DNA of 36,743 bases, taken from assembly GCA_043745805.1 (NCBI GenBank), contig JAYTSD010000015.1, positions 1 through 36,743 on the forward strand. The letters run 5' to 3'. Positions 1 to 36,743 of the stretch are shown piece after piece. Under the pieces are notes generated by a model, which saw only the letters and a list, made by a program, of their open reading frames with translations, was not told the origin of the DNA and did not search any database. Position numbers and translations under genes: made by a program. This stretch comes from Fibrobacteria bacterium (GTDB lineage Bacteria > Fibrobacterota > Fibrobacteria > UBA11236). How positions within the stretch are numbered: the stretch's first letter is position 1; each line of letters opens with the position of its first letter.

Positions 1-53
1 TCATTGAAGCATTTATTCCTGAATCCAATGGAATGAATGCTCTCAAAGACTGA
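1..53 (+). CDS. Partial CDS (3' end only) of an unidentified multicopy protein, ...IEAFIPESNGMNALKD*
   Basis: Frame from nt 3 reads IEAFIPESNGMNALKD-TGA(51-53). It is the exact reverse complement of 36477-36529, the 3' end of the ORF running off the right window edge. Confidence 0.65.
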   Translation, partial: IEAFIPESNGMNALKD

Positions 54-56
54 CTT

Positions 57-223
57 TAATACGTAAGGTCGCCGTGACCGGACTACACATGCGTTTAGAG
101 GGGGTGGCCGAGAATCACGCGAGTTAACACTAACATTTCGTTCACATTCGACAGGCTCAGTGAACAAATGGCTCAACGACCGTGTTGACTCGTGAAGTCG
201 AGGCCAGGGGAAGGCCTTCCCCT
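57..223 (+). ncRNA. Candidate structured non-coding RNA or element end (copy A)
   Basis: Conserved stem CGC-GTGA/TCACGCG enclosing invariant CACATGCGTTTAGA; long variable hairpin GCGAGTTAACAC/GTGTTGACTCGT (119-193); terminal palindrome AGGGGAAGGCCTTCCCCT (206-223). Transcription and strand are not demonstrated. Confidence 0.4.
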
Positions 224-241
224 ACTAATAAATTTTAGACA

Positions 242-275
242 CAAAAATGCCCCACTTCTTTTGAAAGCAGGGCAT
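242..275 (-). terminator. Rho-independent terminator for the 296-1696 gene
   Basis: Minus strand reads ATGCCCTGCTTT-CAAAA-GAAGTGGGGCAT followed by TTTTGT, about 20 nt after the stop codon. Confidence 0.65.
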
Positions 276-295
276 ATTAAAAATCTTAGTAATAG

Positions 296-1696
296 TTAGC
301 GATAATGCACTAAATAAACGCCGTCTTTAGGAAGTACAGTAAGCGTTGCAAAATCATTGAAGAAAGAGCCACGCATAGCGCTCCCTAAAATTTTACCATC
401 TACGCTATGTACATCCATAAATTTAGCATCACCTACCCAAGGCAATGAACCTGCATGCGCCATTTGTAATTTCCAACCTTCAGGAAGAGCTTTTTGCGAA
501 GTCGTTTTGAGAGAAGTAACAATGGAGTCACCGTACCATACTTTATATACAGCGCCATTAGTAGTAGATGTATTTCCGCCGCCTTGCTTGGCTATGTAAT
601 ACATTGCCCCATCCACCGGACTAAACTTAATATCCAGCGGATTAGAAATTTTTGTTGCAAACTGTCCAACCGCATAATTATTGTCCAAATCCAAGGTATG
701 TATCCAGCTCCCACAATAATCCATAAAGAAAAAATAATTCCGGTATTTAGGTGGAAAATTATGAACTTTGGTTGCATTATAGAAAGAGGCTCCGGTAATA
801 GCACATACTCCAGTTTCATGGACTGCATCTATGTGTACTGGCAATTTTAATGTACCAGGCGAGTTAGCGGGATATAGTCCATTGCCCTTCCCGCCTTGAT
901 AATGTGGATAACCATAATTTGCACCAGCAACACCTTCTTGCACAACTTCTGGTCCAAAGTCTTGCACATCATTGATAAAAAATCGACCTGTTGTATTTTG
1001 AAAGGATGTCGTGAATGGATTGCGTAAACCTAATGCCCAAATTGCACGGTTATTCCCTGTCGCCGTAGCATAAAATGGATTATCTGTTGGAATAGTTCCG
1101 TCAGGATTGAAGCGCAAAATTTTCCCCAAATTTAATGTCATACTTTGCGAATACATGTCCTTGCTCGTGTTGCCAATTGCCAAATATAATTTTCCGTCTT
1201 TAGGGCTAAAATGCAAACCTCCTGAAACATGTATTGGGTGGCTGTCGGCAGCCGAATAAGATGGATCGGAATCGAATAAAATTTTTTCACCTCCAATAGC
1301 AGTATCGCCATTTGCCTGGAAACGACTAATGCGGTTGTGTCTTGGCATGGCACCATCTGGAACCGTGTAATAAACATATACCCAAGGACTATCTGGAAAT
1401 TTTGGATGAAAAGTTATTCCGATTAAACCCTGCTCTTCGGTAACTTCAGTGATAACCTTGGCAAAGGGTTTAGGCAGCAGTGAATCTTTTTTAATAATTC
1501 GCACGGCACCATCTTTGAAATTAACGAAAAGTCTACCATCAGGTGCGAATTCCATTTGAGTAGGATTTAATTTTCCCGCAATTAATTTTTCATGAAATTG
1601 CGCATCCGCAAATGTGGCGGCATTAACATTGGTTAAGCCTCCGCCAACTAAAACGTTACCCATTAAAACCAAGGCAAAGGAAGTCTTGAGTTGCAT
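296..1696 (-). CDS. Secreted PQQ-dependent sugar dehydrogenase (GSDH family) with C-terminal T9SS-like tail
   Basis: Signal peptide; motifs EQGLIGITFHP, GKILRFNPDGTIPTDNPF, IWALGLRNP and GANYGYP; C-terminal DVHSVDGK...GVYLVHYR. Confidence 0.85.
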   Translation of the reverse strand: MQLKTSFALVLMGNVLVGGGLTNVNAATFADAQFHEKLIAGKLNPTQMEFAPDGRLFVNFKDGAVRIIKKDSLLPKPFAKVITEVTEEQGLIGITFHPKFPDSPWVYVYYTVPDGAMPRHNRISRFQANGDTAIGGEKILFDSDPSYSAADSHPIHVSGGLHFSPKDGKLYLAIGNTSKDMYSQSMTLNLGKILRFNPDGTIPTDNPFYATATGNNRAIWALGLRNPFTTSFQNTTGRFFINDVQDFGPEVVQEGVAGANYGYPHYQGGKGNGLYPANSPGTLKLPVHIDAVHETGVCAITGASFYNATKVHNFPPKYRNYFFFMDYCGSWIHTLDLDNNYAVGQFATKISNPLDIKFSPVDGAMYYIAKQGGGNTSTTNGAVYKVWYGDSIVTSLKTTSQKALPEGWKLQMAHAGSLPWVGDAKFMDVHSVDGKILGSAMRGSFFNDFATLTVLPKDGVYLVHYR

Positions 1697-2028
1697 ATAT
1701 TCTCCGGCTAATAGTCCCCCGACAAATCGATCCCACCTTAATCAATTTACCGACCATCCTTGATTGGACAGCGGTTCAATAATAATGCCACCTGTAAAAT
1801 TACGCTGAATGTTTTTGCTTTAACACATCTTTTCTCCTCTTCCCCGCTATATCTAAAATCCAGATATTGATTTTCAGGGTTATAAAAAGCATTGATTCGA
1901 TAAATCCAGCCCATTTAAAGAATTATACGTAAAATAACCCACAAATAAGCTCAAGCTTATCAACAAGAAAGGCATTATTTTAATCGCAAGGCGAGGTGAC
2001 AATCTCTAGGATTTTAGGACAAGGAACT

Positions 2029-3729
2029 ATGAAAAACTCAATCCATAAACTTGTAATTTTAGGCGGAAGCTTTATTTTGACTTCGCTGATTTCCTTAACC
2101 TCTTCAGCTGTTGTCGATTTAGGAACTTATAAAGGCTGTAACCTGAAAGATACCGATTTTGTCGCCGTCCCGCTTGCTTTAGTTTCCACAAAAGTTACCG
2201 ATCAACCTTTAAAAATGGCTTTCGACCTAAGAGAAAATAATCAAGTCGATGTTTATTTCGTCGAAAGATTTGGCATAGTTAAAAAATACGATGCCATTAA
2301 AAAAACAGTGGAGGTATTAGGAGAAATTCCTGTCATCCATAAAAATGAAGAAGGACTGCTAGGCATTGCCGTTGATCCCCATTTCAAAAAAAATCACTTT
2401 TTATATTTCATGTATTCTTTTCAGGGCTTGGACACCAACTTTCGCATTTCCAGAATACCGCTTGGAAACGATGGCTTACTTAATTTAGCGGCGGAAAAAG
2501 TTTTAATCAAAATTCCAGGCAAAACAATATTACCGCATACCGGTGGCGCCATGCTATTTGATGCTTATGGCGATTTATGGGTAGCCATGGGAGACAATAG
2601 CTCTCCCGAAGCAGGCCCAGCCAATACCGCCGATTTACGTGGGGGTATCATGCGTATTCATCCCGATGAATTGGATCCCAAAGGTTACACTATTCCCTCG
2701 GGAAATTTCGGTGAAACTTTTGCTGCCTATTTTCAAGCCCAAGGAAAAGCAGATTTAGCTAAAGATTATTTGAATCCCGTCAAAGTTCGTCCCGAAATTT
2801 ATGTGAAGGGTACCCGTAACGCCTATTCCCTATCGGTAGAGCCTGTACGACGCTGGGTCTCTTGGGGCGATGTCGGTCCCGATATGGGCGGTATTTCCGA
2901 AGAACATAATTTAGTGAAATCTCCTCAATACACTGGTTGGCCCTATTTTGCAGGGCAAGTAGATGTAACAACCGTGTACGGTTTTAATTGGACGAAAAAG
3001 GATCGTGCGGCGCCAATGAATACCACCAAGATAAATGGTGTTTCGCAATTGCCTCCTAATCATGAACCAATTCTCCCTCGTGACCGAGCTTGCGCAATGA
3101 ACGGGCCGGTATTTCGTTATGATGGCAGCAACCCTGCACTTAATCAAATTCCTCCCAATCTGGATCATAAATGGATTATTGGCGATTGTAATGGTAGTTA
3201 TGGCTTTCGTATACTTAGTCTCAATGATAAAGCAGATACCATTGTGCAAAATGTTCGTGTTTTCGATCGCTTCAGTGCAGCCGTACTCGTGGATATGCAG
3301 CAAGGCCCCGATGGCGCTTTGTATTATATCGGCTGGCAAAGTGGCGTGTATCGTGTGGATTATAAAGGCTCCTGTAAAGACCCTAGTTTTATTGCGGAAA
3401 AAACGGGTTGTGCCGATTCGCATGATGCGAATTATGATCCTAAAATCAATCCCGCTTATCATGATCCGCGCTTATGTGCCAGTGGCACGGCGATACAGCA
3501 TATCCATCCCGCTAAAGAATGGCTTACCCTAAATGATCGTAGCATTGCCATTAATGCTAATGGTTGGCATGAAATCAGTATTTTTGATATACGAGGTTTA
3601 CAGATTTATAAAGTGAGTGGTTACGGAGCAAAAAGTTATGCTTTGCCTAAGTTACCTTTGGGTGTTTATCAATTGTTAGCCAATTCTTCTCAAGGAACTT
3701 ATTCCGCCAAGCTTTCTCGATTACATTAA
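2029..3729 (+). CDS. Secreted PQQ-dependent sugar dehydrogenase (GSDH family) with C-terminal T9SS-like tail
   Basis: ATG 2029 follows AAGGAAC (ORF track starts at 1996); motifs EEGLLGIAVDPHF, HTGG, IYVKGTRN and GPDGALYY; C-terminal IFDIRG...LPLGVYQL. Confidence 0.85.
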   Translation: MKNSIHKLVILGGSFILTSLISLTSSAVVDLGTYKGCNLKDTDFVAVPLALVSTKVTDQPLKMAFDLRENNQVDVYFVERFGIVKKYDAIKKTVEVLGEIPVIHKNEEGLLGIAVDPHFKKNHFLYFMYSFQGLDTNFRISRIPLGNDGLLNLAAEKVLIKIPGKTILPHTGGAMLFDAYGDLWVAMGDNSSPEAGPANTADLRGGIMRIHPDELDPKGYTIPSGNFGETFAAYFQAQGKADLAKDYLNPVKVRPEIYVKGTRNAYSLSVEPVRRWVSWGDVGPDMGGISEEHNLVKSPQYTGWPYFAGQVDVTTVYGFNWTKKDRAAPMNTTKINGVSQLPPNHEPILPRDRACAMNGPVFRYDGSNPALNQIPPNLDHKWIIGDCNGSYGFRILSLNDKADTIVQNVRVFDRFSAAVLVDMQQGPDGALYYIGWQSGVYRVDYKGSCKDPSFIAEKTGCADSHDANYDPKINPAYHDPRLCASGTAIQHIHPAKEWLTLNDRSIAINANGWHEISIFDIRGLQIYKVSGYGAKSYALPKLPLGVYQLLANSSQGTYSAKLSRLH

Positions 3730-3742
3730 CGCTGATCTCAGC

Positions 3743-3794
3743 TTCGTATGTTTTGTAGGGGCACGACATTTTGTGCCCCTACAAAACATACGAA
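3743..3794. repeat. REP-like GTAG-type palindrome (perfect 22-bp stem, 8-nt loop)
   Basis: TTCGTATGTTTTGTAGGGGCAC-GACATTTT-GTGCCCCTACAAAACATACGAA; closely related to 36335-36407. Confidence 0.8.
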
Positions 3795-3828
3795 ATTAAA
3801 AAGCCGGCTATAGAGCCGGCTTTTTAAT
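3795..3828. terminator. Bidirectional rho-independent terminator between convergent genes
   Basis: ATTAAAAAGCCGGCT-ATAG-AGCCGGCTTTTTAAT, with A/T tracts on both sides. Confidence 0.8.
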
Positions 3829-3902
3829 GAGTTTATTTTTTCATCCCTTTCTCCACTATCAAGAAGCCCCCACTTCTTAAAAGCTTTGAAAAAGCATTGC
3901 GA

Positions 3903-4673
3903 TTATTTTTTTAAATAAACACTTTTGGACAAATGCATTTTATTGCTTATGACGCTCGGAATTATTCTTCCGCTCGCATCAAACATTTTTGTTGTAGAGG
4001 AAGGCATCGATTGACCTTTCAATCCTTGGTTAATACCCACGCCAGTAGCAGGCTGTAATTCTACATAATTAATATTGTAACCCGACTTAACAATTTTCCA
4101 CTTAATTACAGCCATCCCTGCTTTCAAAGTAATTTGTCCTGCATTTTGCACATAATCCCAATAATGATAGCATTCTGGAGGAGGACAGGGTTTAGGATAA
4201 GGCATGATTAAGGCGCCGGAAGAAACCGAGTCAGTTCCTTGAAAAGCATCTACTTGAAAAGACACGTTGTCACCTTGCACTCCTACCATTGCGCTTATAT
4301 AATAAACACCAGCTTGCTTAACATCGACTGTGAATTTCAAAAATTCATTGTTAACTAGCCAGCCCCAATAAGGATCTCCAGGTACTGCATTTTTTATGTT
4401 GGTGGGAACATTTGGATCAGTAGTTTTAACTGGATCTAAATCTACATCTCCGTCAGCAGCGCGAACCTTATAACCGCCAGTAACACCTGTGTCACTATCG
4501 TACCAAGCGATATTTTTAGCTCCTTTGTCATATCTTTCGGGCCTTAAAACGCCGGGCACTGCTTGCGCTGAATCATGATAGGGTGTGCCGGTATAACCGA
4601 CAGGTACCTGCGCTTGTGTTAGTGTTACAAAAATGCCGCCTATTACAGCGGCTGAGAATAAAGAATGGTGCAT
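3903..4673 (-). CDS. Secreted carbohydrate-binding protein (CBM6-like) with basic C-terminal tail
   Basis: Signal peptide (...LTQAQ); VPGVLRPERYDKG...AWYDSD, GWLVNNEFLKFTVDVKQAGVY and NINYVEL; tail MFDASGR...VYLKK. Confidence 0.7.
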   Translation of the reverse strand: MHHSLFSAAVIGGIFVTLTQAQVPVGYTGTPYHDSAQAVPGVLRPERYDKGAKNIAWYDSDTGVTGGYKVRAADGDVDLDPVKTTDPNVPTNIKNAVPGDPYWGWLVNNEFLKFTVDVKQAGVYYISAMVGVQGDNVSFQVDAFQGTDSVSSGALIMPYPKPCPPPECYHYWDYVQNAGQITLKAGMAVIKWKIVKSGYNINYVELQPATGVGINQGLKGQSMPSSTTKMFDASGRIIPSVISNKMHLSKSVYLKK

Positions 4674-4732
4674 AAATGCTCCTTAACTAATGGGGGGAAT
4701 TCGAAGCTTTTTAAAAGGCCTGCTTCTCGGCC

Positions 4733-7465
4733 TTATTGGGTAACCTCCGCCGTTTCAGAATCGGCAGGAAGGGCATTATTTGTTTCCTCAATATTTTCTT
4801 CTGTGTCTTCTTCGCCACCTTCCGAAGGCGGCATTTCGAAATCACCTACGGAAAAATGATAAGAGAATTGTTCACCGGCATTGACGCCAATAAATAAATG
4901 CGTATAGGATTTTGCTTCCGCCATGCCCGCTAAAATTTGGCGAGAGATTTCTGGCATTAAGCGTTGATCAATAATGGTATCAATATTGCGCGCACCGCTT
5001 TGGGATGTTGTGCAGAGCATCACGATTTTGCGGACAACTTCGGGCGAGACGGCGAAGGCAATTTTATGCCTTTCCATCAAGCGTTTGCCCACTTTCATCA
5101 ATTTCAAGAAGACAATACGTTTTAAGGTTTCGGTATCCAAAGGCAAGAAAGGCACTACTTTACAGCGCGCTAATAATGCTGGTGCAAAATGATCGGTGAG
5201 CTCTTGTAATATATTGCGACGATAATCATCTAGAGTATAATTTTGGTCGCTTTGCGCAGCCATGGCGGTAATGGTATCGAGCCCTAAATTACTAGTCATA
5301 ATAATAACAGTATTGCGGAAGCTAATGTCGCGGCCTTCGCCATCGCGTAACATACCTTTGTCGAATACTTGATAGAACATATTGAGAATATCTTTATGTG
5401 CTTTTTCAACTTCGTCGAGAATCACCACGGTATAAGGACGTTTACGCACGCCTTCCGTGAGCACGCCACCTTCACCATAGCCCACATAACCCGCGCTAGC
5501 GCCTTTGAGTTGGGTGATGGACATACTGTCTTGATATTCTGACATATTAATAGTCACAACGGATTTTTCACCGCCGAAAAGAATATTGGATATGGACAAA
5601 GCCACTTCAGTTTTACCAACGCCAGAAGGACCCGTAACCAGAAAAACACCCATAGGGGCTTCGGGATTGGTGAGGCCTAATTTGGCGGTACGTAAGGTAG
5701 AGGCAATTTCGTGAACACCTGCGCTTTGGCCTACTACTTTAGCATTAATGGTTTCTTCTAATTCTAATAAAGCTTGCGCTTCATTTTTAAGCATACTGCC
5801 AACCGGAATACCCGTCCATTCGGCGATGATTTGAGCAATCACGTCTTTGGATACATGGGCATGCACCATGGCTTCTTCGCCTTGATGGACTTCGAGTACT
5901 TTCCATTGAGCATCTAAATCGGCGCGTAAGGTTTTGGCTTCGTCGGAGCCAGCTTCGGCATTGGCAATTTTTTCTTGAGTGGCGATAATTTTTTTTACCA
6001 ATTCCAATTCTTTTTGCCATTTGGTGGTCATGGCTTCTGCATCGGCTTTAGCTTGCACTAATTTTTCGGCGGTGCGTTCTAAGGCTTCGACATCTTTAAG
6101 AATACCGGCTTTATGATCTTTTTCTAGAGCGATAATTTCAATTTCTAAATTGCCAATCACTTGTTCCAAATTGATGAGCACAGGTGGCTTGGCAGTTAAC
6201 CCCATTTTCACGCGGGCTGCGGCTGTATCTAATAAGTCCACGGCTTTATCGGGTAATTGACGACCGGCAATATATTTATGCGATAAATCGCAAGCGGCTT
6301 GTACGCCTTCATAAGTGATTTTTACACCATGGAATTTTTCGTAATGGGTGCGTACACCGCGTAACATAATCGCAGCTACTTCAGGAGTGGGTTCATCGAT
6401 ATGTACCATTTGAAAGCGACGTGCCATAGCGGGATCTTTTTCAAAGTATTTACGAAACTCAGTCAGCGTAGTAGCCGCTAGGATTTTTAATTCCCCACGC
6501 GCCATTTCTGGTTTCAATAAATTGGCTGCATCCCCTTTGCCTTCATCGCCACCGGCGCCAATCATTGTATGCGCTTCATCGATAAATAAAATGACGGGAA
6601 CTTCGGAAGACTTTACTTCTTTAATCACGCCTTTAAGCCGATTTTCAAATTCACCGCGCATACTCGCGCCGGCCGAAAGCAGGCCTAAATCCAAGCTGCG
6701 TATTTCCACATTCTTCAACATGTCCGGTACACGGCCTTCAGCAATGCGCAAAGCCAAGCCTTCGATAACCGCTGTTTTACCTACACCGGCTTCGCCTACC
6801 ATAATGGGATTGTTTTTACGACGACGGGAAAGAATATCAATCATTTGTCTTATTTCATCATCGCGACCAAATATAGGGTCGATTTTTCCTTGACGACCCA
6901 TTTCGGTAAAGTTAATCGTGAAGCGAGCTAAATTGGAACCTTCTGCGGCAGTACCTGCTTGCGTGCGACCAGCGCCTTTAGCCGAGCTTTCAGTTTCCTT
7001 GGAGCCAGCAAGCATTTCGGCGAATTTTGCGAGTAAAGTGTCATAAGAAATAAGTGCGATTTGATCGGATAAACTGGGGGAAATAGCATTGGGATTCTTT
7101 TTCAAAGCCATTAAAATAGCCGCCGTGCGAATTTCGCTTTCATTGAGGTTTAAAGTGGATTCGGACCAAGCATATTCGAGAATGCTCACAAACTGTGGAG
7201 AGAAGGTCGGCTTACCCGTATTTCCCGTACGCAGGTCTCTCAATTCCTTTTGCAAAGCGCCTTTAAATAAGCCGGGATCGATTTTGAAATAGGAGAGTAT
7301 AAAAATCAAATCGCCATGACCTTCTTCTAAGGCTTGTGCGAGTATATGTGCAGCCGTTACCTCATAATGGGAGCGGCTTACACAAGCGCCGACAGCGCCT
7401 TCTAATAAGGCTCGATTATATTTATTGAGCTTCTCTAATAAGACGCGTACCGATTGAGCTATCAT
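4733..7465 (-). CDS. tssH: ClpV/TssH-type AAA+ ATPase (type VI secretion sheath disassembly family)
   Basis: Two Walker A motifs (GEAGVGKT, GPSGVGKT); ClpV-like N-terminus LEGAVGACVSRSHYEV; LDLGLLSAGASMRGEFENRLK, GYVGYGEGGVLTE and SGARNID. ATG 7465 follows AGGGGAAAA (ORF track starts at 7507). Confidence 0.85.
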   Translation of the reverse strand: MIAQSVRVLLEKLNKYNRALLEGAVGACVSRSHYEVTAAHILAQALEEGHGDLIFILSYFKIDPGLFKGALQKELRDLRTGNTGKPTFSPQFVSILEYAWSESTLNLNESEIRTAAILMALKKNPNAISPSLSDQIALISYDTLLAKFAEMLAGSKETESSAKGAGRTQAGTAAEGSNLARFTINFTEMGRQGKIDPIFGRDDEIRQMIDILSRRRKNNPIMVGEAGVGKTAVIEGLALRIAEGRVPDMLKNVEIRSLDLGLLSAGASMRGEFENRLKGVIKEVKSSEVPVILFIDEAHTMIGAGGDEGKGDAANLLKPEMARGELKILAATTLTEFRKYFEKDPAMARRFQMVHIDEPTPEVAAIMLRGVRTHYEKFHGVKITYEGVQAACDLSHKYIAGRQLPDKAVDLLDTAAARVKMGLTAKPPVLINLEQVIGNLEIEIIALEKDHKAGILKDVEALERTAEKLVQAKADAEAMTTKWQKELELVKKIIATQEKIANAEAGSDEAKTLRADLDAQWKVLEVHQGEEAMVHAHVSKDVIAQIIAEWTGIPVGSMLKNEAQALLELEETINAKVVGQSAGVHEIASTLRTAKLGLTNPEAPMGVFLVTGPSGVGKTEVALSISNILFGGEKSVVTINMSEYQDSMSITQLKGASAGYVGYGEGGVLTEGVRKRPYTVVILDEVEKAHKDILNMFYQVFDKGMLRDGEGRDISFRNTVIIMTSNLGLDTITAMAAQSDQNYTLDDYRRNILQELTDHFAPALLARCKVVPFLPLDTETLKRIVFLKLMKVGKRLMERHKIAFAVSPEVVRKIVMLCTTSQSGARNIDTIIDQRLMPEISRQILAGMAEAKSYTHLFIGVNAGEQFSYHFSVGDFEMPPSEGGEEDTEENIEETNNALPADSETAEVTQ

Positions 7466-7645
7466 TTTTCCCCTGTTTCGCTTTAAGATTGTAGGCCAAG
7501 CACCCATTTGACCATAAAGATCAAATGAGGATTAACCCAAAAATTCACCTTAAAAGTTAAATAATAATGCGCTTAGCCAAGAGAAAGAATTGGCGTGTAT
7601 TCTAACATTATCCTACTAAGAAAAGGGTTTTTGCAAAATAAAGGC

Positions 7646-8422: not shown

Positions 8423-8451
8423 CCAAAGTGATAAATATATTAATACTAATT

Positions 8452-9477
8452 TTATGGATTTAATAAGCGCACTTCCACAGGCTTATCTTGATTAAAATCG
8501 TTTTCCAAACCTTTATTGGCTTCTAAGGCTTCGAGAGTATAAGGAATTTCCTTCACTCGTTCTGCCTTCACCCCTTTTTCTACCAAATAGGCAACCAAAG
8601 CTTTGGAACGATCTTGCAGTAATTTAACGTATTCCTCTTTTTTCTTGCCTCGCAAAGTCATGGAAACATGAATTTCAATTTGCTTGTCACCATACTCTAG
8701 CAATTGCTTAGATAACATATCGAGGGATTGTTCGGACTCTACTGTTAATTCATCGGTACCGGTGCGGAATTTAACCGCCGCATACGATTGCGTCGCTTGT
8801 AAAGGTGCAGTAACATGATCGACGCAACCATCATCATCATCCACTCCATTCATATTTTCAGCTTCATTAGGACATTTGTCCATATTATCGGGAATACCAT
8901 CTTTGTCATTATCTGGATCGGGGCAACCATCGGCATCTTCAAAGCCGTCTTTATCTTCGGCCGCATTAGGACATTTATCTGTAGCTTGGCAAACACTGGC
9001 GTATTTTTCCGATTGACCTTTTTCCGCTACCCACGCATCGCAAATGCCATCTTTATCATTATCTACATCAGGACAACCGTCATTATCTTCAAAGCCATCA
9101 ATGTCTTCCGCATCATTGGGGCATTTGTCTTTTAGGTCAGGAATGCCATCTTTATCATTGTCGAGATCGGGGCAACCATCTTCATCTTCAAAGCCATCTT
9201 TATCTTCGGCTATTTCGGTACATTTATCACTACCATGGCAAACGCTGGCATATTTTTCGGACTGGCCTTTTTCCGCTACCCATGCATCGCAAATGCCATC
9301 TTTATCATTATCTACATCAGGACAACCATCCTGATCTTGAAAACCATCCATATCCTCCGGATCTTTTGGGCATTCATCATATTTATTGGGAATACCATCG
9401 TCATCCGCATCAAAGGCATGTAAGGGCATGCTATATAGTAAGGGGAGTAAGAATAGTAGGGGTTTTAATATCCGCAT
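8452..9477 (-). CDS. Thrombospondin type-3 repeat protein with degenerate OmpA-like C-terminal domain
   Basis: Signal peptide; multiple EDxDGFEDxDGCPDxDNDKDGI repeats; C-terminal VKFRTGTDEL...RSKALVAYLVEKGV. Confidence 0.85.
   Translation of the reverse strand: MRILKPLLFLLPLLYSMPLHAFDADDDGIPNKYDECPKDPEDMDGFQDQDGCPDVDNDKDGICDAWVAEKGQSEKYASVCHGSDKCTEIAEDKDGFEDEDGCPDLDNDKDGIPDLKDKCPNDAEDIDGFEDNDGCPDVDNDKDGICDAWVAEKGQSEKYASVCQATDKCPNAAEDKDGFEDADGCPDPDNDKDGIPDNMDKCPNEAENMNGVDDDDGCVDHVTAPLQATQSYAAVKFRTGTDELTVESEQSLDMLSKQLLEYGDKQIEIHVSMTLRGKKKEEYVKLLQDRSKALVAYLVEKGVKAERVKEIPYTLEALEANKGLENDFNQDKPVEVRLLNP
8987..9327. repeat. Intragenic direct repeat (~92 bp at 8987-9078 and 9236-9327)
   Basis: Offset 249 nt (83 aa); both copies encode GCPDVDNDKDGICDAWVAEKGQSEKYASVC. 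Confidence 0.85.
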
Positions 9478-10046
9478 AAAGTCCTCGGTTAATAATCTGA
9501 GTTAATATAGAAAAAGCCTGCTAAGATAAAAACGGAAGACCGGAATTTTTTCTGTCCAGCAGAATTTGGGGGGGAAATTTATTCGCCCCTTAAATGTCAT
9601 TTGTTCATCTGTATATAAGTGTTACTCAAGGAGTAGGAAAAAAGTTAAGCTGTAAATTAAAGTTAAAGTGAATAAATTAAAAATAAACATTCTCGCTACG
9701 TCTTATAGAGGTTACCGATGTTTTTTTATTGCGATAAATTTTAGCTTTTATTAAAGTATTTTTTAATATTAAAATTCATATCTTCAGTCTTTTGATCTTT
9801 TTTTAATTCTCTCCATTTTTCATAAGTCAAAGTATTTTCAGGGCTTACGTGCCTAATTTTTTATCCCGTTTTCTCCACATAATTTATTTGCATTTGTTAT
9901 TGCCAGCCTACATAATAAAGATATGCGTGTTATAGATATTGAAAAATTAAAAAGCGATAATAAAATAATTACTTTAAAATGCTCAAGTCTTTCAAAACTA
10001 AACCGATAAAAAACAATAGACTCATTAGCCATAGGAGGGACATCAA

Positions 10047-10622
10047 ATGAGCTTTTCAACTAAACTAAAAATGGTATTGGTCGCAGCTGCCTTATCCGCT
10101 AGTGCGACCTATGCCGTATCATTCACCATGGGTGGTACAATCCAAACAATTAATTCGCTTACAGCCGTTGGCGAACAACAATTGGATTTTACTTCCCCTG
10201 CAACATTCACCGCTATCGCTACGTTAACGATTAGTAATAATACCGATTCGTACGATTTGAATTTAAAATTCACCAATAGTGGTCAATTTCTTAAGCCATC
10301 CGCTGCTCTTGGCACAGGTGTAACTATGACCGCAATTCGAGTGAGAATGTTAACTCCAGCTGCGACTACAGGTGCGGGTGGTTGGGGAACAACTATCGCG
10401 TCCTTAGTTCCAGGTGTTGCCTCTGGTGTTACTGACGTGGTAAATTCCCTTATCACAGCTCAGGCCAATAACGTTGCGGGTTGGACATGGAATCCTGCCG
10501 ATCAAACGACCTCAACGGTGGGTGGCGTTTTGAAAATCGAAGCGTCATGGTTGGCCTCCACGAAACTCGCTGGTGCTTATAGTGAAACTTGTACAGCCTT
10601 ATTGACTTCAACGATTAACTAA
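10047..10622 (+). CDS. Putative chaperone-usher major pilin, copy 1
   Basis: RBS GGAGGGA; signal peptide; T/A/S/G-rich beta-type sequence; C-terminal AGAYSET resembles the AGxY(D/E)T strand of Csu/SCPU-type pilins; upstream of chaperone and usher. Confidence 0.75.
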   Translation: MSFSTKLKMVLVAAALSASATYAVSFTMGGTIQTINSLTAVGEQQLDFTSPATFTAIATLTISNNTDSYDLNLKFTNSGQFLKPSAALGTGVTMTAIRVRMLTPAATTGAGGWGTTIASLVPGVASGVTDVVNSLITAQANNVAGWTWNPADQTTSTVGGVLKIEASWLASTKLAGAYSETCTALLTSTIN

Positions 10623-10663
10623 TCCTTGAAGTTAAAATTGTAGTGCCGTTCAAAGTTACCCCC

Positions 10664-10698
10664 AAAAGAAGAGGATGCCCCATTCTCTTCTTTTTTTT
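10664..10698 (+). terminator. Rho-independent terminator after pilin copy 1
   Basis: AAAAGAAGAGGATG-CCC-CATTCTCTTCTTTTTTTT. Confidence 0.8.
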
Positions 10699-10883
10699 GT
10701 GCAATTTTCTCTTCACAAATTCTTTGCATTTGTTATTGCCAGCCTACATAATAAAGATATGCGTGTTATAGATATTGAAAAATTAAAAGGCGATAATAAG
10801 AATAATTATTTTAAAACGCTCAAGTCTTTCAAAACTAAACCGATAAAAAATAATAGACTCATTAACCATTGGAGGGACTTCAA

Positions 10884-11459
10884 ATGAGCTTTTCAACTAA
10901 ACTAAAAATGGTGTTGGTCGCAGCTGCCTTATCTGCAAGTGCGACCTACGCTGTGTCATTCACCATGGGTGGTACAATCCAAACAATTAATTCGCTTACA
11001 GCCGTTGGCGAACAACAATTGGATTTTACTTCTCCAGCTACTTTCACCGCTATTGCTACATTAACGATTAGTAATAATACTGATTCCTACGACTTGAATT
11101 TGAAATTTACCAATAGTGGTCAATTTCTTAAGCCATCCGCTGCTCTCGGCACAGGTGTAACTATGACCGCAATTCGCGTGAGAATGTTAACTCCAGCTGC
11201 GACTACAGGTGCGGGTGGTTGGGGAACAGCTATCGCGTCCTTGGTTCCTGGTGTAGCATCCTCTACTCCTGATGCAGTCAATTCTCTTATCACTGCCGAG
11301 GCTAATAACGTTGCGGGTTGGACATGGAATCCTGCCGATCAAACGACTTCAACGGTGGGTGGCGTTTTGAAAATCGAAGCCTCATGGTTGGCCTCCACGA
11401 AACTCGCTGGTGCTTATAGTGAAACTTGTACAGCCTTATTAACTTCAACGATTAACTAA
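10884..11459 (+). CDS. Putative chaperone-usher major pilin, copy 2
   Basis: 185/191 aa identical to copy 1; ATG 10884 after GGAGGGA (the ORF track start at 10869 overlaps the RBS). Confidence 0.75.
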   Translation: MSFSTKLKMVLVAAALSASATYAVSFTMGGTIQTINSLTAVGEQQLDFTSPATFTAIATLTISNNTDSYDLNLKFTNSGQFLKPSAALGTGVTMTAIRVRMLTPAATTGAGGWGTAIASLVPGVASSTPDAVNSLITAEANNVAGWTWNPADQTTSTVGGVLKIEASWLASTKLAGAYSETCTALLTSTIN

Positions 11460-11500
11460 TCCTTGAAGTTAAAATTGTTGGACTATTCAAAGTCACCCCC

Positions 11501-11534
11501 AAAAGAAGAGAATACCCCATTCTCTTCTTTTTTT
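11501..11534 (+). terminator. Rho-independent terminator after pilin copy 2
   Basis: AAAAGAAGAGAAT-ACCCC-ATTCTCTTCTTTTTTT. Confidence 0.8.
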
Positions 11535-26452: not shown

Positions 26453-26589
26453 GATTACTCTTTATGTGTGAAATTGAAACAAAATGGCCGAATTTCTTGA
26501 AAAGGAGCCGAGAACATAATATAATGGGGGCCTTTCGGCAAGGGCTTATACGGCTTCGATTCGTTTCAATGCTGTTATAAATTGCGAGA

Positions 26590-27144: not shown

Positions 27145-27458
27145 CAGTCGTTATTCTGGGTTTTACGGTTCATCCATACCATTAATAAATCTACTACTTC
27201 CAAATCGAGATGCGCAATATCTGCACCATCTTTTTGCTCATGAAATTCAAAATCCCCAACGGACAAATCTAGAAGTAAAAATATGGCCTCTAAGCCCTCT
27301 AAACCTCGATAAAAACTGCGCTCAATTTTACCCGCTTTTAAATCAATGAGTCCCGCGCGGCGACCGCTTACAATTTCTAATTGCCCACTTTTTTTTCCCA
27401 TGGAAAGAAATTGTAGAAAATCATGTAATGGCGTTTGTGCTAAATTTCCCTGTAACAT
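27144..27458 (-). CDS. DUF4388 (PATAN-like) single-domain protein
   Basis: LQGNLAQTPLHDFLQFL...KKSGQL...G.I...G..A.......GDFEF; TAATG overlap with the rel stop. Confidence 0.8.
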   Translation of the reverse strand: MLQGNLAQTPLHDFLQFLSMGKKSGQLEIVSGRRAGLIDLKAGKIERSFYRGLEGLEAIFLLLDLSVGDFEFHEQKDGADIAHLDLEVVDLLMVWMNRKTQNND

Positions 27459-29776: not shown

Positions 29777-29803
29777 GCTCCCCTCAAGAGATAAAGTCTC
29801 TTA

Positions 29804-31315: not shown

Positions 31316-33036
31316 GGGTTCCCACCTTTGTTTCGGTTTCTGTTTAAGTCCACGAGCCGCTTTGCAAGAGCAGCTTTTTTAGCAAAATCATTTTCTTCGC
31401 CCATGCGTTTTTGAATAAAACGCGTTTCCAGGGCAGCCATTAAATCGCGGTAGTTTTTATGCAACAATTCCCAAGTCGAATTTTCTACGAACTCTGCGGT
31501 AGCAATAGCATCTTGGCCTTCAGAAGATAAGCTGGGTAAAAAATCTTTAAGATTTAATTTTTTTTCTTCCGCTACAAAGGCCAATAAATGATCGATTAAA
31601 TCTCGTACAAAAACATCCGCAATCCATTCCAACTGCAATTGGTCTATGGCCAACAAACAAGTTTCATAGGAAGACAATAATAAATCCAGTAATTGCCATT
31701 CGGGATGCGCGCGGTTAGGAGCGGATATTCTAGGAAACTCAGGAGTTATGGAAGAGGCACTTTGCAATACCGAAACCGGCAAAGTATTGAGTCCTAATTT
31801 TTGGCTGAGCTGTTTATAGTATTCGGATTTCACAAGAGGTGAAGGAATCACTTGTAAGGCTTCAACCGCTTGCTGCAAAAGGCTTTCCTTTTGTTCAGGA
31901 CTCCAAGTGCCGCCTTCGAGTGCATAAGGCTCGGTGAGAAAATCTACGACATTAGGGCTTTGTTGTAATAAGGCCAAAGTTTTTTCCGCCCCATTTTTAC
32001 GCACAAAACTATCGGGATCCTCAGGAGACGGGAGTGCTGGAATTCGCACTTCCACACCCGCCGCTAATAATAAAGGAATGCTACGCAAAACAGCTTTGCG
32101 ACCTGCGGCATCGCCATCAAAAAATAAATAGGCTTTTTTTACAAAACGAGCAAGGGTTTGCACATGTTCCGTAGTTAAAGCCGTGCCAGACACTGCTACG
32201 GCATGATGAATGCCCGCTTGCCATAGTGCAAGCAAATCCATATAGCCTTCCACCAAAATCACTTCGCTGTTTTGTGCGATAACACTACGCGAAAAATTAA
32301 ATCCATAAAGAACTTTGCTTTTATGATAGAACATGGATTCGGGAGAATTCATATACTTGGCAAAATCACCATTCCCTAATAAACGTCCGCCAAAACCAAT
32401 AACATGGCCACTTAAATTCCAAATAGGGAAAATCAAACGGCCTTGAAAACGATCATAATAACGGCCTTGGGAATTTTGCCCAATAATACCCGCATCCATA
32501 AAGGATTCCACGGGGATTTTTTTCGCAGCTGCTTTTTGCAAAAGCTTATCCACACTTTGGGGCGCATAACCGATTTGAAAATGTTTAGCTGTAACCGGTG
32601 TGATACCTCTACTTCTTAAGTATTCATGCACTTCCGTATTTTGCGCAAGTTCATCTTGGTAAAATTGACAGGCAAGTTGATTCGCTTGTAAGGCTAATGT
32701 GCTTTTATCTTTTTCACCGGCATCGCGCGTATGCCCTAAATTATCAGGTATGACAATGCTCGCTTTGTCGCATAGTAGGCGCAATGCATCGATAAAGCCA
32801 ATCTTTTCATATTCTTGCACGAAATGAATCACATCGCCACCGGCTCCGCAGGCAAAGCATTTATAAAGGTTGAGCTGTGGCGTGACATGCATGCTGGGGC
32901 TACGATCATTATGGAAAGGGCAAAGACCAAGATAACGACTCCCTGCTTTCTTTAAAGGAATATACTGCCCAATCACTTGCACAATATCAAGATTTTCCTT
33001 TACTTGCAGAATAATGTCTTTTAAGGAAACAGGCAT
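31312..33036 (-). CDS. dnaG: DNA primase
   Basis: CPFH...CFAC zinc finger, FGGR, KYMNSPE, VEGYMD, FDGDAAG and DPD; ATG 33036 more plausible than 33108. Confidence 0.95.
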   Translation of the reverse strand: MPVSLKDIILQVKENLDIVQVIGQYIPLKKAGSRYLGLCPFHNDRSPSMHVTPQLNLYKCFACGAGGDVIHFVQEYEKIGFIDALRLLCDKASIVIPDNLGHTRDAGEKDKSTLALQANQLACQFYQDELAQNTEVHEYLRSRGITPVTAKHFQIGYAPQSVDKLLQKAAAKKIPVESFMDAGIIGQNSQGRYYDRFQGRLIFPIWNLSGHVIGFGGRLLGNGDFAKYMNSPESMFYHKSKVLYGFNFSRSVIAQNSEVILVEGYMDLLALWQAGIHHAVAVSGTALTTEHVQTLARFVKKAYLFFDGDAAGRKAVLRSIPLLLAAGVEVRIPALPSPEDPDSFVRKNGAEKTLALLQQSPNVVDFLTEPYALEGGTWSPEQKESLLQQAVEALQVIPSPLVKSEYYKQLSQKLGLNTLPVSVLQSASSITPEFPRISAPNRAHPEWQLLDLLLSSYETCLLAIDQLQLEWIADVFVRDLIDHLLAFVAEEKKLNLKDFLPSLSSEGQDAIATAEFVENSTWELLHKNYRDLMAALETRFIQKRMGEENDFAKKAALAKRLVDLNRNRNKGGNP

Positions 33037-33363
33037 AGTAGTCCGTGTTAAAATGTCGGATACAAAATACCCATCCGATGTGGTCTTCACTAGGGTACTC
33101 ATGAACACAATCCGTTTACTTGTTTAAGAGCCTGTTTAGTTGCTTTTTTAATTTGAAACCCAATTTCTAACTGGAAAAAACTTGGAGAAAAAACTTTCTG
33201 ACAGATTTTCCCATTATAGATTCTTTAAATCAACTTTAACTTCTTCGGTTTTTTGATAAAAAAACTTTAATGCGAGAGAAAGGGACTTGACTCCCGATTC
33301 TTATGTCAGAGAAAGGTCAAAAAAAGGTAAAGAGGGCGTAAAGTGAACATAATTTTATCGGCT

Positions 33364-34185
33364 TTAAGCATTCGTGAAAAACAAGTTTTGTGCATTTTGT
33401 TCCAAAATCTCATGAAACTCCTCTAGTGCTTGTTTGCGAATTTCCGAAAAGGCGGACAATACAGCAATAAAATCAATGGGCAAGCTTTCCCCTAATTTAT
33501 GCTGCACATTTCCCACATAAGGTGCATCAGTTTCTAAGAGCACAAAATCAAGTGGCACATAAGCGGCCATTTCCCTAACACGATTTCGCTTTGCAAAAGT
33601 TAAAGCTCCAGAAAAACTAATGTGCAACCCCAAATCCAAAAATAATCGCGTCATTTCCAAAGAGGTGGATAGCGAATGCATCACGCCTTTTAACTGGCCG
33701 CGATAGTCGGCCAAAATATCATAGGTCTTTTGCACCAAGCCTACACAATGAATAATAACCGGTAACTTTTTCGCGATGGCGAATTCTAATTGATGGCGAA
33801 AAAAGAATTCTTGTTCTTCCAAAGTATTTTCGCTGCGATTATCCAAACCAATTTCCCCAATGGCATGTAAGCCTTCCGCTTCCCAATAAGGCGAAAACAC
33901 ATCCAGTTCATAGCCTTTTAAAAAAAGCGGATGCAAACCCACAGCCCGCCTTACTTGTGTGGGGTGGTTTTTCCAAATTTGCATAGACCGATGCCAAGAA
34001 AAAGGTTTATAGCCAGGAATCACAAATCGCCCAATACCCGCTTGATTGGCAAGCTGCATATTTTCTGCGAGATGTTCAAAAATTGGCTTATCGGTTAAAT
34101 GCACATGCGTGTCGGTCCAAGTTAATATCGGACTCAGCTTCTTCTCCAACAAATCAGAGAATTTTTCCTTCGCATTAGTATTCAT
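33364..34185 (-). CDS. tatD: TatD family hydrolase
   Basis: DTHVHL, VGLHP, AIGEIGLD, LPVIIH and LLETDAPY. Confidence 0.9.
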   Translation of the reverse strand: MNTNAKEKFSDLLEKKLSPILTWTDTHVHLTDKPIFEHLAENMQLANQAGIGRFVIPGYKPFSWHRSMQIWKNHPTQVRRAVGLHPLFLKGYELDVFSPYWEAEGLHAIGEIGLDNRSENTLEEQEFFFRHQLEFAIAKKLPVIIHCVGLVQKTYDILADYRGQLKGVMHSLSTSLEMTRLFLDLGLHISFSGALTFAKRNRVREMAAYVPLDFVLLETDAPYVGNVQHKLGESLPIDFIAVLSAFSEIRKQALEEFHEILEQNAQNLFFTNA

Positions 34186-34243
34186 CAAAAGATTTTTTCA
34201 TGTTTAACCCTTCGCCCTTATTTTAGCAATTAATTTTCTCCCC

Positions 34244-35356
34244 ATGTCAGAAACTAATTTTTCTCCCTCACTAGGTTCGCTAAACCCACTAGATCATTTT
34301 GGCCCAGTTGCTTTGCCACTGCTGATTTTAGGGATGCCTGGCGTACCGGGTTATAATGCTTTTTATTTTTTTCGCAAACTTTTTGGGGATGCGGTTTTTG
34401 GTTTAACACCTTTGCATGCTCAAGAATTAAATGGACCAGGGATTATCAGCGCCGAAGCCGAAAATTTCGAAGCTTTAAAAAAAGTTTTTGATGATTATCA
34501 ATTTGCTTCTATTGTCGATGCCTCCGGCTGGTGCGCTTTAAAATCGGCAGAATATAATGTGGAACTCGCCCGCAAAGTCAATGTGGATATAGGTGAAAAT
34601 GTCATGCGTTTAGCCAGTGAACGAGGTTGCAAATTGATTCGACTCTCTACCGATTTAGTTTTTGACGGCTTGCCTTATGAAAAAAATGGGGTCATTACCG
34701 AAGGAAATTATACCGAAGAGTGGCCGGTTTCTCCGGTTACCGTGTATGGAAAAATGATGGCCTTAGCGGAAAATAAAATTTTATCGGGTTATCCTGCCGC
34801 CAGCGTATTGCGCATTTCCCTGCCAATGGGCCCTTCTTGGAACGGGCATGCCGGGGCCATCGATTGGATCGAATCGCGCTTTCGCAAAAACTCACCCGCT
34901 ACACTTTATTTTGATGAAGTGCGTAGCAGTCTGTATGTGCAAGATTTAAATCAAGTACTCTTGTATTTTTTAACGCATTCTCACGCCGGAATTTATCATG
35001 TTGGTGGCCCTTTAGCTTTAAGTTTGTATCAAATCGCACAAGTGATTAATCGTCTAGGTAATTATCAATCCGATTTACTCATGGGCTGTCCGCGTGCTGA
35101 AGCAGGGCCTATGCCTCCTCGCGCGGGGCATGTGGGAATGGATATCTCTAAGGTAACTGCAATATTACCCCTAGGAACACTTAATACTTGGCCTTTAAGT
35201 GCTGAGCAAATCCCTACCGATAAACAATGGCATGCGCCAAGAAACGCGCTATTTCCTAAACACAGTATTTCCAAATTGCTGTATGGCTATGCGGGAAATG
35301 ATCATCCGGAAAAAATTATTCCTAAAACCCATCCTTGGCATATTGATTTCAATTAA
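34244..35356 (+). CDS. RmlD-like sugar-nucleotide reductase (extended SDR)
   Basis: LSTDLVFDG, YTEE...PVTVYGK and GIYHVGG; atypical Gly-rich motif GMPGVPG. Confidence 0.8.
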   Translation: MSETNFSPSLGSLNPLDHFGPVALPLLILGMPGVPGYNAFYFFRKLFGDAVFGLTPLHAQELNGPGIISAEAENFEALKKVFDDYQFASIVDASGWCALKSAEYNVELARKVNVDIGENVMRLASERGCKLIRLSTDLVFDGLPYEKNGVITEGNYTEEWPVSPVTVYGKMMALAENKILSGYPAASVLRISLPMGPSWNGHAGAIDWIESRFRKNSPATLYFDEVRSSLYVQDLNQVLLYFLTHSHAGIYHVGGPLALSLYQIAQVINRLGNYQSDLLMGCPRAEAGPMPPRAGHVGMDISKVTAILPLGTLNTWPLSAEQIPTDKQWHAPRNALFPKHSISKLLYGYAGNDHPEKIIPKTHPWHIDFN

Positions 35357-35406
35357 GGCATCGATTAATTGCCGAAACCTAGGCACGAATTTATATTTCT
35401 CGCCTT

Positions 35407-35483
35407 GGTCGTTTAGCTCAGTTGGTTAGAGTACATCGTTCACATCGATGGGGTCGAAGGTTCAAATCCTTCAACGACCACCA
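35407..35483 (+). tRNA. tRNA-Val(CAC)
   Basis: Cloverleaf: acceptor GGTCGTT/AACGACC, D arm GCTC/GAGT, anticodon arm CATCG-TTCACAT-CGATG, T arm GAAGG-TTCAAAT-CCTTC, encoded CCA; 77 nt. Confidence 0.97.
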
Positions 35484-35584
35484 AGTATTGCACATCACTT
35501 TTAATTTTAAAGTAAAGTTTTGGAACAAACTTCCTATACTGAAAAAGCCATCGATGCATAAATCCTTTTTTTAGGGACCACAAC

Positions 35585-35887
35585 ATGATTTATATAACCG
35601 TAAAACTTTTTGGCCGAAATGGGTTTAAAGGCGAATTTAAAGATTATGAAAGCAAAGCCTTAAATATTTTTAAAAAGTATGGCGGGGAAGTAATTATTGC
35701 TTATGCGCCATTAGTCGAAATCAAAAGCGACAATACTCCTGATGAAATTCAAATTTTAAAAATCGCCACGCAAGAAGCCTTCAAAAATTTTATGGTTGAT
35801 CCGGAAAGGCTAAGCATGGCCGCTGAACGAGATGCCGTCATACGCAAAACTGAAGTTTTTGTTTCGGGTGAAGTTGTGGATTATTGA
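35585..35887 (+). CDS. DUF1330-like small protein
   Basis: FKDYESKALNIFKKYGGEVI pattern typical of DUF1330; RBS AGGGA. Confidence 0.7.
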   Translation: MIYITVKLFGRNGFKGEFKDYESKALNIFKKYGGEVIIAYAPLVEIKSDNTPDEIQILKIATQEAFKNFMVDPERLSMAAERDAVIRKTEVFVSGEVVDY

Positions 35888-35975
35888 GTTCAAAAACTTC
35901 CTGTTTCCGAATTATTAATATCGCTAGAATAAGATGGCTAGATAAAAAACCATTCTCCCCTGAATTTTCTTAACA

Positions 35976-36185
35976 ATGAAATTACCTTCAGGATTCACAA
36001 AGGAAATATCATGACGGATTTAAACCCCACTCTCTCAAGTAAACTTGCTTGATTCAATTAAAGAACACAAACCGGATGCACGTCCATTGAAAATCTCGGT
36101 TATGAATTATAATGCCGGTAGTACAGCCGCCCGATTCCTTGTGGGTTTTGGAGCAGGCTCAGCAAGATTAGTTGTTGAAGAATGA
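35976..36185 (+). pseudogene. Decayed fragment resembling DUF4410 proteins
   Basis: One frame reads MKLPSGFTKEIS*RI*TPLSQ...LKISVMNYNAGSTAARFLVGFGAGSARLVVEE*, with two internal stops; GSxAxRxxVGFGAG motif recognised from memory. Confidence 0.55.
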
Positions 36186-36301
36186 AAATGGATGAGTTAA
36201 GCGCATGAAGCGAATTTTTATTAGTAGCGTGCAAAAAGAATTTGCAACAGAGCGATCTGTATTCGGTGATTTTTTATTTTATCTAAAATTAATTCATGCA
36301 A

Positions 36302-36472
36302 AGGGGAAAGCCTTCCCCTAGCCTCGGCTTCCCTTTTTCGTATTTTGTAGAGGCACGTTTGTTTTTCGTAGGGGCACAAAATTTTATGCCCCTACGAAAA
36401 ACGAAAACGCGTGATCCTCATCTACCCCATCTAAACGCATGTGGGGTCAAATCACAGCGCCCTTATGTATTA
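36302..36472 (-). ncRNA. Candidate structured non-coding RNA or element end (copy B)
   Basis: Same conserved stem and CACATGCGTTTAGA core (here with ACCCCA/TGGGGT pairing), variable long hairpin, and terminal AGGGGAAGGCTTTCCCCT. Confidence 0.4.
36335..36407. repeat. REP-like GTAG palindrome with an extra half-copy
   Basis: GTTTTTCGTAGGGGCA/TGCCCCTACGAAAAAC perfect 16-bp stem (36361-36402), preceded by TTTTCGTATTTTGTAGAGGCACG. Confidence 0.8.
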
Positions 36473-36476
36473 AAAG

Positions 36477-36743
36477 TCAGTCTTTGAGAGCATTCATTCC
36501 ATTGGATTCAGGAATAAATGCTTCAATGATCAAAGTGTTGCCTTCCACAAAAATATTATGTCTTAGTGAAATAAAATCGGATTCAATTTCTAGTTGATGG
36601 GGCGATAGATATTTTAATGCGAATAATTTTCTTTCCTTGGGCAAGGGGTGTTGTCCGGAATTATGTTTACACAATTCGGAGACATAATGAAAGAACTGGT
36701 CAATCAGCGAAATTTTACCGAAGAATTCAAACGGTTTGTGGTA
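36477..36743 (-). CDS. Partial CDS (C-terminal 88 aa) of an unidentified multicopy protein, open to the window edge
   Basis: Frame open from 36743: YHKPFEFFGKISLIDQFFHYVSELCKHNSG...IEAFIPESNGMNALKD*. Confidence 0.7.
   Translation of the reverse strand, partial: YHKPFEFFGKISLIDQFFHYVSELCKHNSGQHPLPKERKLFALKYLSPHQLEIESDFISLRHNIFVEGNTLIIEAFIPESNGMNALKD

Follow-up and report, generated by a model that had tools for sequence, protein, structure and literature searches.

The described repeats closest to the element treated here are the BOX elements of Streptococcus pneumoniae, the REP/BIME repeats of Enterobacteria and Pseudomonas, and the attC sites of integrons. BOX elements have the architecture boxA-(boxB)n-boxC. 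REP-type repeats, according to Di Nocera et al. 2013 (PMC3733652), are placed mostly near gene 3' ends, between convergent or co-directional genes, and carry a GTAG tag that is described as unpaired; the GTAG repeats listed there come from Proteobacteria, Cyanobacteria, Chloroflexi and PVC, with no Fibrobacterota among them. Here we analyze the entire contig C15 of the Fibrobacterota genome G000 (positions 1–36743; this whole stretch is called the window), which is bracketed by inverted copies of the 3' part of an orphan open reading frame (ORF), ORF148, each followed by a hairpin repeat. We read the bracket, with a probability of about 0.8, as made up of repeats of three ordinary classes, in a genome that is a metagenome-assembled draft: the lineage-specific ORF148 would be present in about three copies, one of them split by an insertion sequence (IS) with its 3' half at the right end of the window; a dispersed modular hairpin repeat, independent of ORF148, would lie 3' of each ORF148 copy; and an IS with 3-bp target duplications would occupy at least six sites. 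The assembler would have broken the contig at the ORF148 repeat on the left and at the IS on the right, so that paralogous copies of an orphan gene, together with an IS and the assembly breaks, would have produced the bracket incidentally.

Inverted arms at both ends of the window

G000 is a bin of 50 contigs and 3.95 Mb, with a completeness of 99.19% and a contamination of 0.7%, and its source runs are a sediment metagenome. These runs and its EF-G, which is 85% similar to that of MAGs labelled Fibrobacteria/Fibrobacterota, identify it as an uncultured member of Fibrobacterota. The first 57 nt of the window are 100% complementary to positions 36473–36529, and a repeat search of the window, which returned only 8 inverted pairs of at least 25 nt, adds a second ungapped block of 67 nt at 81% identity (55–121 with 36408–36474). 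A perfect inverted repeat of 57 nt cannot be due to chance. By our own count, positions 58–122 agree with the right arm, shifted by one extra T, at 51 of 65 positions, and positions 194–223 agree with 36302–36331 at 27 of 30. Just outside the hairpin element, the sequence AATTTTAGA is common to both arms (231–239, plus strand, and reverse-complemented at 36282–36290). The inverted copies that a preliminary description had placed at the window ends are thus real, and of the block identities given there 27/30 is borne out and 52/65 becomes 51/65.

The common reading frame of both arms stops with TGA at 51–53 and 36479–36477. On the left, positions 1–53 of the plus strand hold the last 16 codons and the stop of an intact-type ORF148 copy, the remaining gene being carried by contig C3 (C3:1292–1738). 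On the right, a 3' remnant of ORF148 (36477–36646, minus strand; residues 93–148 and the stop) is identical to C3 at 169 of 170 nt, with one synonymous change. The arms differ in their centers, where the left carries a TTCGACAGGCTCAGTGAA-type module (147–164) and the right a GTAG palindrome (36364–36399). The central mismatch had been taken for a non-homologous insert; it is real, and it arises because the hairpin tip carries a different small palindromic module in each arm, one having been swapped for the other.

Contig ends of G000 share exact overlaps of 99 nt, the assembly word size k. Such overlaps join the right end of C3 to the left ends of both C15 and C21 (the last 99 nt of C3 equal window 1–99 and C21:1–99), and the right end of C15 to the reverse of the left end of C17. 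Since the overlaps measure exactly 99 nt, both window ends are assembly breaks at repeats. The proposal that repeats explain the contig ends is borne out; the right end is due to a different repeat, the IS inside a gene copy.

A modular hairpin repeat behind ORF148

The element begins 4 nt 3' of the stop codon behind each ORF148 copy. On the left it comprises a 5' extension (58–100, plus strand), a degenerate counterpart of an upstream GC hairpin found in other Fibrobacterota, and a core (101–225, plus strand) that our covariance model R1 recognizes with 87.1 bits and an E-value of 1e-17. Between the 5' box GGGGTGGCCGAG and the 3' box GTCGAGGCCAGGGG of this core extends a long covarying stem with the single TTCGACAGGCTCAGTGAA module at its tip, and the core ends with a GGGG/CCCC hairpin. 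The second copy (36300–36428, minus strand; 76.3 bits) has the GTAG palindrome as its tip and is preceded by an extension (36429–36476, minus strand) about 80% identical to positions 54–100. The extension also occurs at C4:119300–119346 without ORF148: nhmmer matches start there at query position 7–8, and tblastn finds no copy of the ORF in C4.

An nhmmer search with the three post-ORF stretches led to at least 13 further loci in G000, all devoid of ORF148, and R1 recovers 21 copies, only 3 of which lie behind ORF148. The sequence is therefore multicopy, as the preliminary description had supposed, with more than one ORF copy and 21 element copies in the genome. In all copies the 5' box reads GGGGT-R-G...GAGGA and the 3' box reads G-R-GCCGAGGC-Y-AGGGG, with the GGGG/CCCC hairpin after it; the boxes are separated by a long stem whose sequence varies from copy to copy yet stays paired. 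The copies measure 62 to 178 nt, sharing their ends and differing at their tips. Two types of module are found at the stem tip: TTCGACARGCTCAGTGAC-type units, with 49 genome matches at up to 3 mismatches and 0 to about 4 units per element, and the GTAGGGGCAC...GTGCCCCTAC palindrome, whose exact 10-mer occurs 28 times in the genome, including a second in-window copy at 3751–3786. The former is found in the left arm and the latter in the right; both are independent palindromes that also occur alone.

The pairing is supported by covariation. In a MAFFT alignment of 18 copies from G000, 89% of the cells are paired, compared with 78% in shuffles, and 10 of 20 pairs show double changes; 0 of 500 shuffles scored as high, and no slid register came close. 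The corresponding figures are 87% and 78% in a second, independent alignment (MAFFT; 20 short copies, 10 genomes). Across genomes, the closing helix has GC:14/AU:6 and CG:11/UA:8 with 0 unpaired cells. The structure common to the phylum has an extra upstream GC hairpin, a closing helix of 4 bp, a purine-rich internal loop that is invariant (GGA opposite G-A/C-A) and a terminal hairpin that hardly varies.

Identity between copies changes in steps. The right copy, compared with C3, falls from 169/170 in the coding part to about 80% four bases past the stop; C15-left and C21-left are identical up to position 99 and diverge at the first core base (99/100), past which C21-left equals the right arm for about 30 nt. 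These breakpoints coincide with the sub-module borders of the element, and the sharp breaks at 57/58 and 99/100 probably reflect recombination or gene conversion between element copies, the repeat marking both gene ends and recombination breakpoints.

Distribution and genomic position of the repeat

R1 copies are present in 14 of 31 other genomes of the family (a count that includes the unpublished G008) and in 80 of 151 genomes sampled across Fibrobacterota, among them 35 of 35 in genus g10; the filters of this phylum scan were strict beyond 40 genomes, and no more than 25 candidates per genome received a score. The complete g10 genome G111 has 22 copies, the long ones with insertions at the same tip position. 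The covariance model, a by-product of this analysis, thus describes a hairpin repeat that more than half of the sampled Fibrobacterota carry, all 35 species sampled from the Fibrobacter-like g10 among them. In an Rfam 15 search of the window only the tRNA reaches its gathering score, and a relaxed search with 7 copies from G000 and 6 from G028 and G111 gave only chance matches far below it. Hammerhead and K-turn readings of the GA loop were dropped, as the core positions misfit by eye and no Rfam ribozyme scored. Intergenic regions of Fibrobacteres were screened by Weinberg 2017 (PMC5737381), whose supplements might list the motif; the literature searched holds no description of Fibrobacter repeats. 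The hairpin repeat is apparently undescribed and phylum-wide.

In G000, the stop of a convergent gene lies no more than 93 nt from the 3' end of 11 of the 21 copies, and for 10 of these the distance is at most 32 nt; five others lie behind a same-strand ORF by at most 76 nt, in addition to the three behind ORF148. At 8 of 10 loci in relatives, the 3' end of the element points to the end of a convergent gene no more than 128 nt away. In G111, 13 of 22 copies are downstream of a same-strand ORF, with gaps of 40–1041 nt, 8 of them of at most 79 nt. The neighbors are unrelated and often accessory (ParE, GNAT, HsdS, alpha-amylase, DUF2971, unknowns), one G111 neighbor carrying a Fib_succ_major domain, and no consistent small ORF is found upstream of the 21 G000 copies.

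Comparison with REP/BIME, BOX and attC elements

The placement of the repeat is of REP type: intergenic, near gene 3' ends, between convergent or co-directional genes. It further resembles REP/BIME in being a short dispersed hairpin with stem mismatches and G.T pairs, in the GT[AG]G motif at its 5' side and in its mosaic combination with other small modules. It differs from the published description of REP repeats in that the T, R and G of the tag pair with the 3' box, the R position covarying as GC:10/AU:6, and in its conservation across a phylum, REP families being conserved across a species or genus. The RAYT gene (Y1 transposase, PF01797) has 0 matches in G000, G111, G053, G142 and G146, and 2 in G069 only. 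RAYT-driven spread is thus not supported, with no PF01797 in 5 of the 6 genomes tested.

The likeness to BOX elements is one of architecture only: conserved outer boxes that pair, with inner modules between them whose number varies (from 0 to about 4 in the present repeat). The sequences are unrelated, the phylum is different, and the inner modules are here independent palindromes with 49 and 28 matches. Like attC sites in general architecture, the repeat has two helices, a closing one and a second one, set apart by a spacer that is unpaired or irregular, and a tip that varies; its position after accessory ORFs is common to both. Unlike attC sites, it has no RYYYAAC/GTTRRRY boxes in its consensus, and its copies are dispersed, not arrayed. 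Three genomes of genus g19 carry a true integron integrase (418–431 bits against a cut-off of 265, which 0 of 14 control genomes pass). An attC identity was rejected, as the 20-kb attC array beside the integrase of G142 is a different sequence with 0 R1 matches, while 4 R1 matches lie on the other side of the integrase.

The integron of G142 is an observation of its own: at locus L187 (contig C18 of that genome, 11100–31090) it is complete, with an IntI of 430 bits, at least 11 cassettes and attC sites of about 150 nt.

We infer that the repeat is transcribed into the 3' untranslated region (UTR) of whichever gene lies upstream. The predicted fold would be an irregular hairpin, with a closing helix of 4–5 bp, a purine-rich G.A internal loop and a long stem with an exchangeable tip, followed by the GGGG/CCCC hairpin. 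As with REP/BIME or BOX elements, this structure may protect the 3' end or bring about termination there. We give about even odds to the element being a transcribed 3'-end hairpin of the REP/BIME/BOX kind.

ORF148 and its copies

The full ORF was recovered through the assembly graph on C3, a repeat contig of 1784 nt, where it encodes 148 amino acids (aa; C3:1292–1738) and belongs to no known transposase family. The preliminary description could not assign the protein to any IS, TnpB, reverse transcriptase (RT) or integrase family, in agreement with our searches: ORF148 has no significant match in Pfam (one sub-threshold hit, E-value 0.31), NCBIfam or PADLOC, finds only itself and one 106-aa, 91%-identical fragment among 5.8 billion clustered proteins, and is absent from 31 of 31 other genomes of the family searched. 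In the ESM Atlas there was no usable match and language-model recognition was low; a single-sequence AlphaFold2 model has a pLDDT of 37, too poor for a fold search. ORF148 is a lineage-specific orphan and not a transposase, TnpB, RT or integrase.

Two of the copies appear to be of the C3 type. Because C3 branches into both C15-left and C21-left, a C3-like segment should exist twice. The Logan contigs of four runs of one study agree with this in outline: a form that skips 389 nt (the divergent helix-turn-helix (HTH) gene described below) and a form that skips 115 nt (the palindrome before ORF148) occur beside the C3 form, and the contig depth, which is not a copy number, is higher for the 3' part of ORF148 than for the middle of C3. 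The third copy would be the IS-split one, with a different N-terminus. The right end of C18 encodes ORF148 residues 20–54 behind a different N-terminus; a Logan loose end before C3:1349 reproduces the upstream sequence of C18, and a variant with 7 differences continues to C3:1517. The 5' half of the IS-split ORF is most likely C18-right. Judged from these sequences, ORF148 would thus have about three copies, two leading into C15-left and C21-left and one split. A degenerate paralogous fragment lies at C39:19855–20028.

Divergent from ORF148 on C3 are a gene for an 84-aa XRE-type HTH protein (HTH_3/HTH_26) and the N-terminus of a PAAR-motif protein of type VI secretion, which continues into C36. 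A perfect 30-nt palindrome (C3:1223–1252), 40 nt upstream of the ORF148 start and adjoining the HTH gene, is a candidate operator, and ORF148 is perhaps controlled by the divergent HTH protein; one variant among the Logan contigs lacks both the palindrome and the HTH gene. The PAAR-domain gene has at least two N-terminal versions, 96% identical (C3 and C40-right), both seemingly leading into C36, where an ORF that resembles class-3 lipases and contains a GHSLGG motif has small ORFs as neighbors. The C3/C36/C40 region looks like a duplicated type VI effector island.

The insertion sequence at the right end

The last 97 nt of the window (36647–36743, plus strand) are the terminus of an IS, with an inverted repeat at 36647–36672 and a first ORF starting at 36687. 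The same 97 nt stand at five other contig ends, where they diverge from unrelated flanks at the same base, giving six left-end junctions. Read outward, the sequence starts with a 26-nt terminal repeat, and an ORF opens 40 nt in; the 28 readable residues of this ORF have HTH_Tnp_1 as their only Pfam match, below threshold (E-value 0.12). Logan contigs aligned to C3 have a loose end into this IS sequence before C3:1569 and another into a second sequence behind C3:1571. This second end matches the first as an inverted repeat at 19 of 26 positions by our own letter comparison, and it stands at four further contig ends. From the junctions at C3:1569 and 1571 it follows that an IS with a 3-bp target duplication splits an ORF148 copy, and 36644–36646 is one copy of the duplication. 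The 88-aa open frame on the minus strand (36477–36743) is a chimera of the gene remnant and the antisense IS end, in which only residues 93–148 are ORF148. A further insertion, flanked by C5-right and C11-left, has the 3-bp duplication GAA; duplications of 3 bp are therefore seen at both resolvable insertions, and the IS is present at six or more sites. It was not found in the 31 related genomes.

The 3-bp duplications, the imperfect terminal inverted repeats and the first ORF right after the left end recall the IS3 family, which is a candidate for this IS. The ends of this IS differ in reading GGT...ACC; the HTH_Tnp_1 match is weak (28 aa, E-value 0.12), and the DDE/OrfB body lies outside the assembly. 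A search of G000 did not find the body, the rve matches there being other or unlinked fragments.

The insertion that joins C5-right to C11-left sits in the loop of a GTAG palindrome; this palindrome forms the tip of one more copy of the hairpin repeat, the 22nd, which the IS splits (C11:1–160 and C5:9056–9227). Two other IS types break the G000 assembly: C16 (2286 nt), a collapsed rve-domain element whose left end is common at 77 nt to five other contig ends, and an IS3-like type whose OrfA (HTH_Tnp_1) ends C50-right and whose OrfB (rve) starts C32-left. The analysis also yields contig links, from C3 to C15-left and C21-left, probably from C18-right via the IS to C15-right, and from C5-right via the IS to C11-left.

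Alternative readings of the bracket and the repeat

Several points weigh against our reading of the bracket and of the repeat. The copy numbers rest on the assembly graph and on Logan contig depths, which are not copy numbers; the source is a metagenome, so some ORF148 variants could be strain alleles; and the link of the C18-type variant to the right IS junction is deduced, not seen. For the repeat, the excess of G.U over A.C in the stems is only 14 to 6, which leaves selection at the RNA level unproven over a hairpin acting at the DNA level; in G000, copies oriented against the nearest gene end outnumber those oriented with it; a simple terminator scan did not call the terminal hairpin of either window copy a terminator; and no RNA run is among the sequencing runs holding the stretch.

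The strongest competitor concerns the repeat, which could be a functional RNA class, either a protein-binding 3'-UTR module or a small RNA family, with selection keeping about 20 copies per genome. In its fullest form, the element would be a phylum-wide structured RNA binding a conserved factor at mRNA 3' ends, in which a GC hairpin and a spacer GGGG come before a hairpin that has the invariant G.A-rich loop and a free tip, and a GGGGG/CCCCC hairpin comes last. The conservation of sequence and structure in 80 of 151 genomes, the similar copy numbers in distant genomes (21 in G000, 22 in G111), the strong covariation of the closing helix around an invariant internal loop and the absence of RAYT genes from 5 of the 6 genomes searched all speak for such a role. 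The neighboring genes, however, form no regulon, the orientation relative to genes is mixed, and the tip accepts unrelated modules and an IS, like selfish or neutral repeats; moreover, 71 of the 151 sampled genomes have no match at threshold under the strict filters and the 25 scored candidates per genome. We regard this function as possible and rather doubtful, and prefer the 3'-end hairpin of the REP/BIME/BOX kind.

A second possibility is that ORF148 and its downstream element form a mobile or cassette-like unit that inserts beside, or recombines at, the repeat elements. The element does lie behind all three ORF148 copies, and likewise in a related strain, where a loose end behind C3:1768 enters another 5' box; the fall in identity exactly 4 nt past the stop and the divergence of C15-left and C21-left exactly at the core start fit this idea too. 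Against it, no recombinase or transposase accompanies ORF148, and the 5' homology limit of the third copy lies inside the gene (C3:1346), so there is no defined left end; 18 of the 21 elements are without ORF148 and lack a consistent small ORF upstream, and the element is not an integron attC, as the G142 array shows. Such a unit is very unlikely. The end of a mobile element, one of the proposals of the preliminary description, does not agree with those 18 copies, which stand beside unrelated genes. Its other proposal, a dedicated system of a protein and a noncoding RNA, is contradicted by the distributions, the element occurring in 80 of 151 Fibrobacterota genomes and the ORF in 0 of the 31 others of the family. 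TnpB/IscB-omegaRNA, retron and other protein–ncRNA systems were likewise rejected, ORF148 having no significant match in Pfam, NCBIfam or PADLOC and 18 of the 21 elements no ORF148.

That the inverted repeat is an assembly or binning artefact, with one real gene copy and positions 1–57 a graph overlap or strain variant, is the least credible reading. In its favor, the sequence comes from a metagenome bin, the overlap of contig ends equals the k of 99, and related strains of 2–5% divergence are present in the same study. Against it, the right arm is situated 214 nt inward from the contig end, with unique sequence joined to it on either side; past nt 57 the arms differ and are hence distinct loci; C15 and C21 are both long and belong to a nearly complete bin with little contamination; and runs X1 and X2 contain distinct variants whose contig depths are similar (in X1, 24.3 and 21.7).

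An inversion of the 36 kb between the arms may occur, as the preliminary description had suggested: the 57 perfect nt and some ~400 nt of ORF sequence at 95–99% identity, the IS discounted, could support RecA-mediated inversion.

Other features of the window

The 36 kb between the arms are core chromosome, with genes for ClpB, an AhpC-type redoxin, citrate synthase, isocitrate dehydrogenase, EF-G, MurB, RelA/SpoT, RpoD, DnaG and TatD. The tRNA-Val (CAC; 35407–35483, plus strand) is an ordinary neighbor outside the repeat. Next to the left arm, a canonical hairpin plus T-run terminator (247–275, minus strand) belongs to the convergent glucose/sorbosone dehydrogenase gene (296–1696, minus strand). 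The ORF at 8452–9477 (minus strand) contains internal repeats of 249 and 88 nt (8825–9379) and encodes an Asp/Gly-rich repeat protein with no Pfam match at 1e-5. A tandem duplication of ~837 nt (86–93% identity) at 9857–11100 gives two paralogous ORFs of 191 and 196 aa without Pfam hits, and the same 31-nt hairpin stands 3' of each paralogue, at 10664–10694 and 11501–11531.

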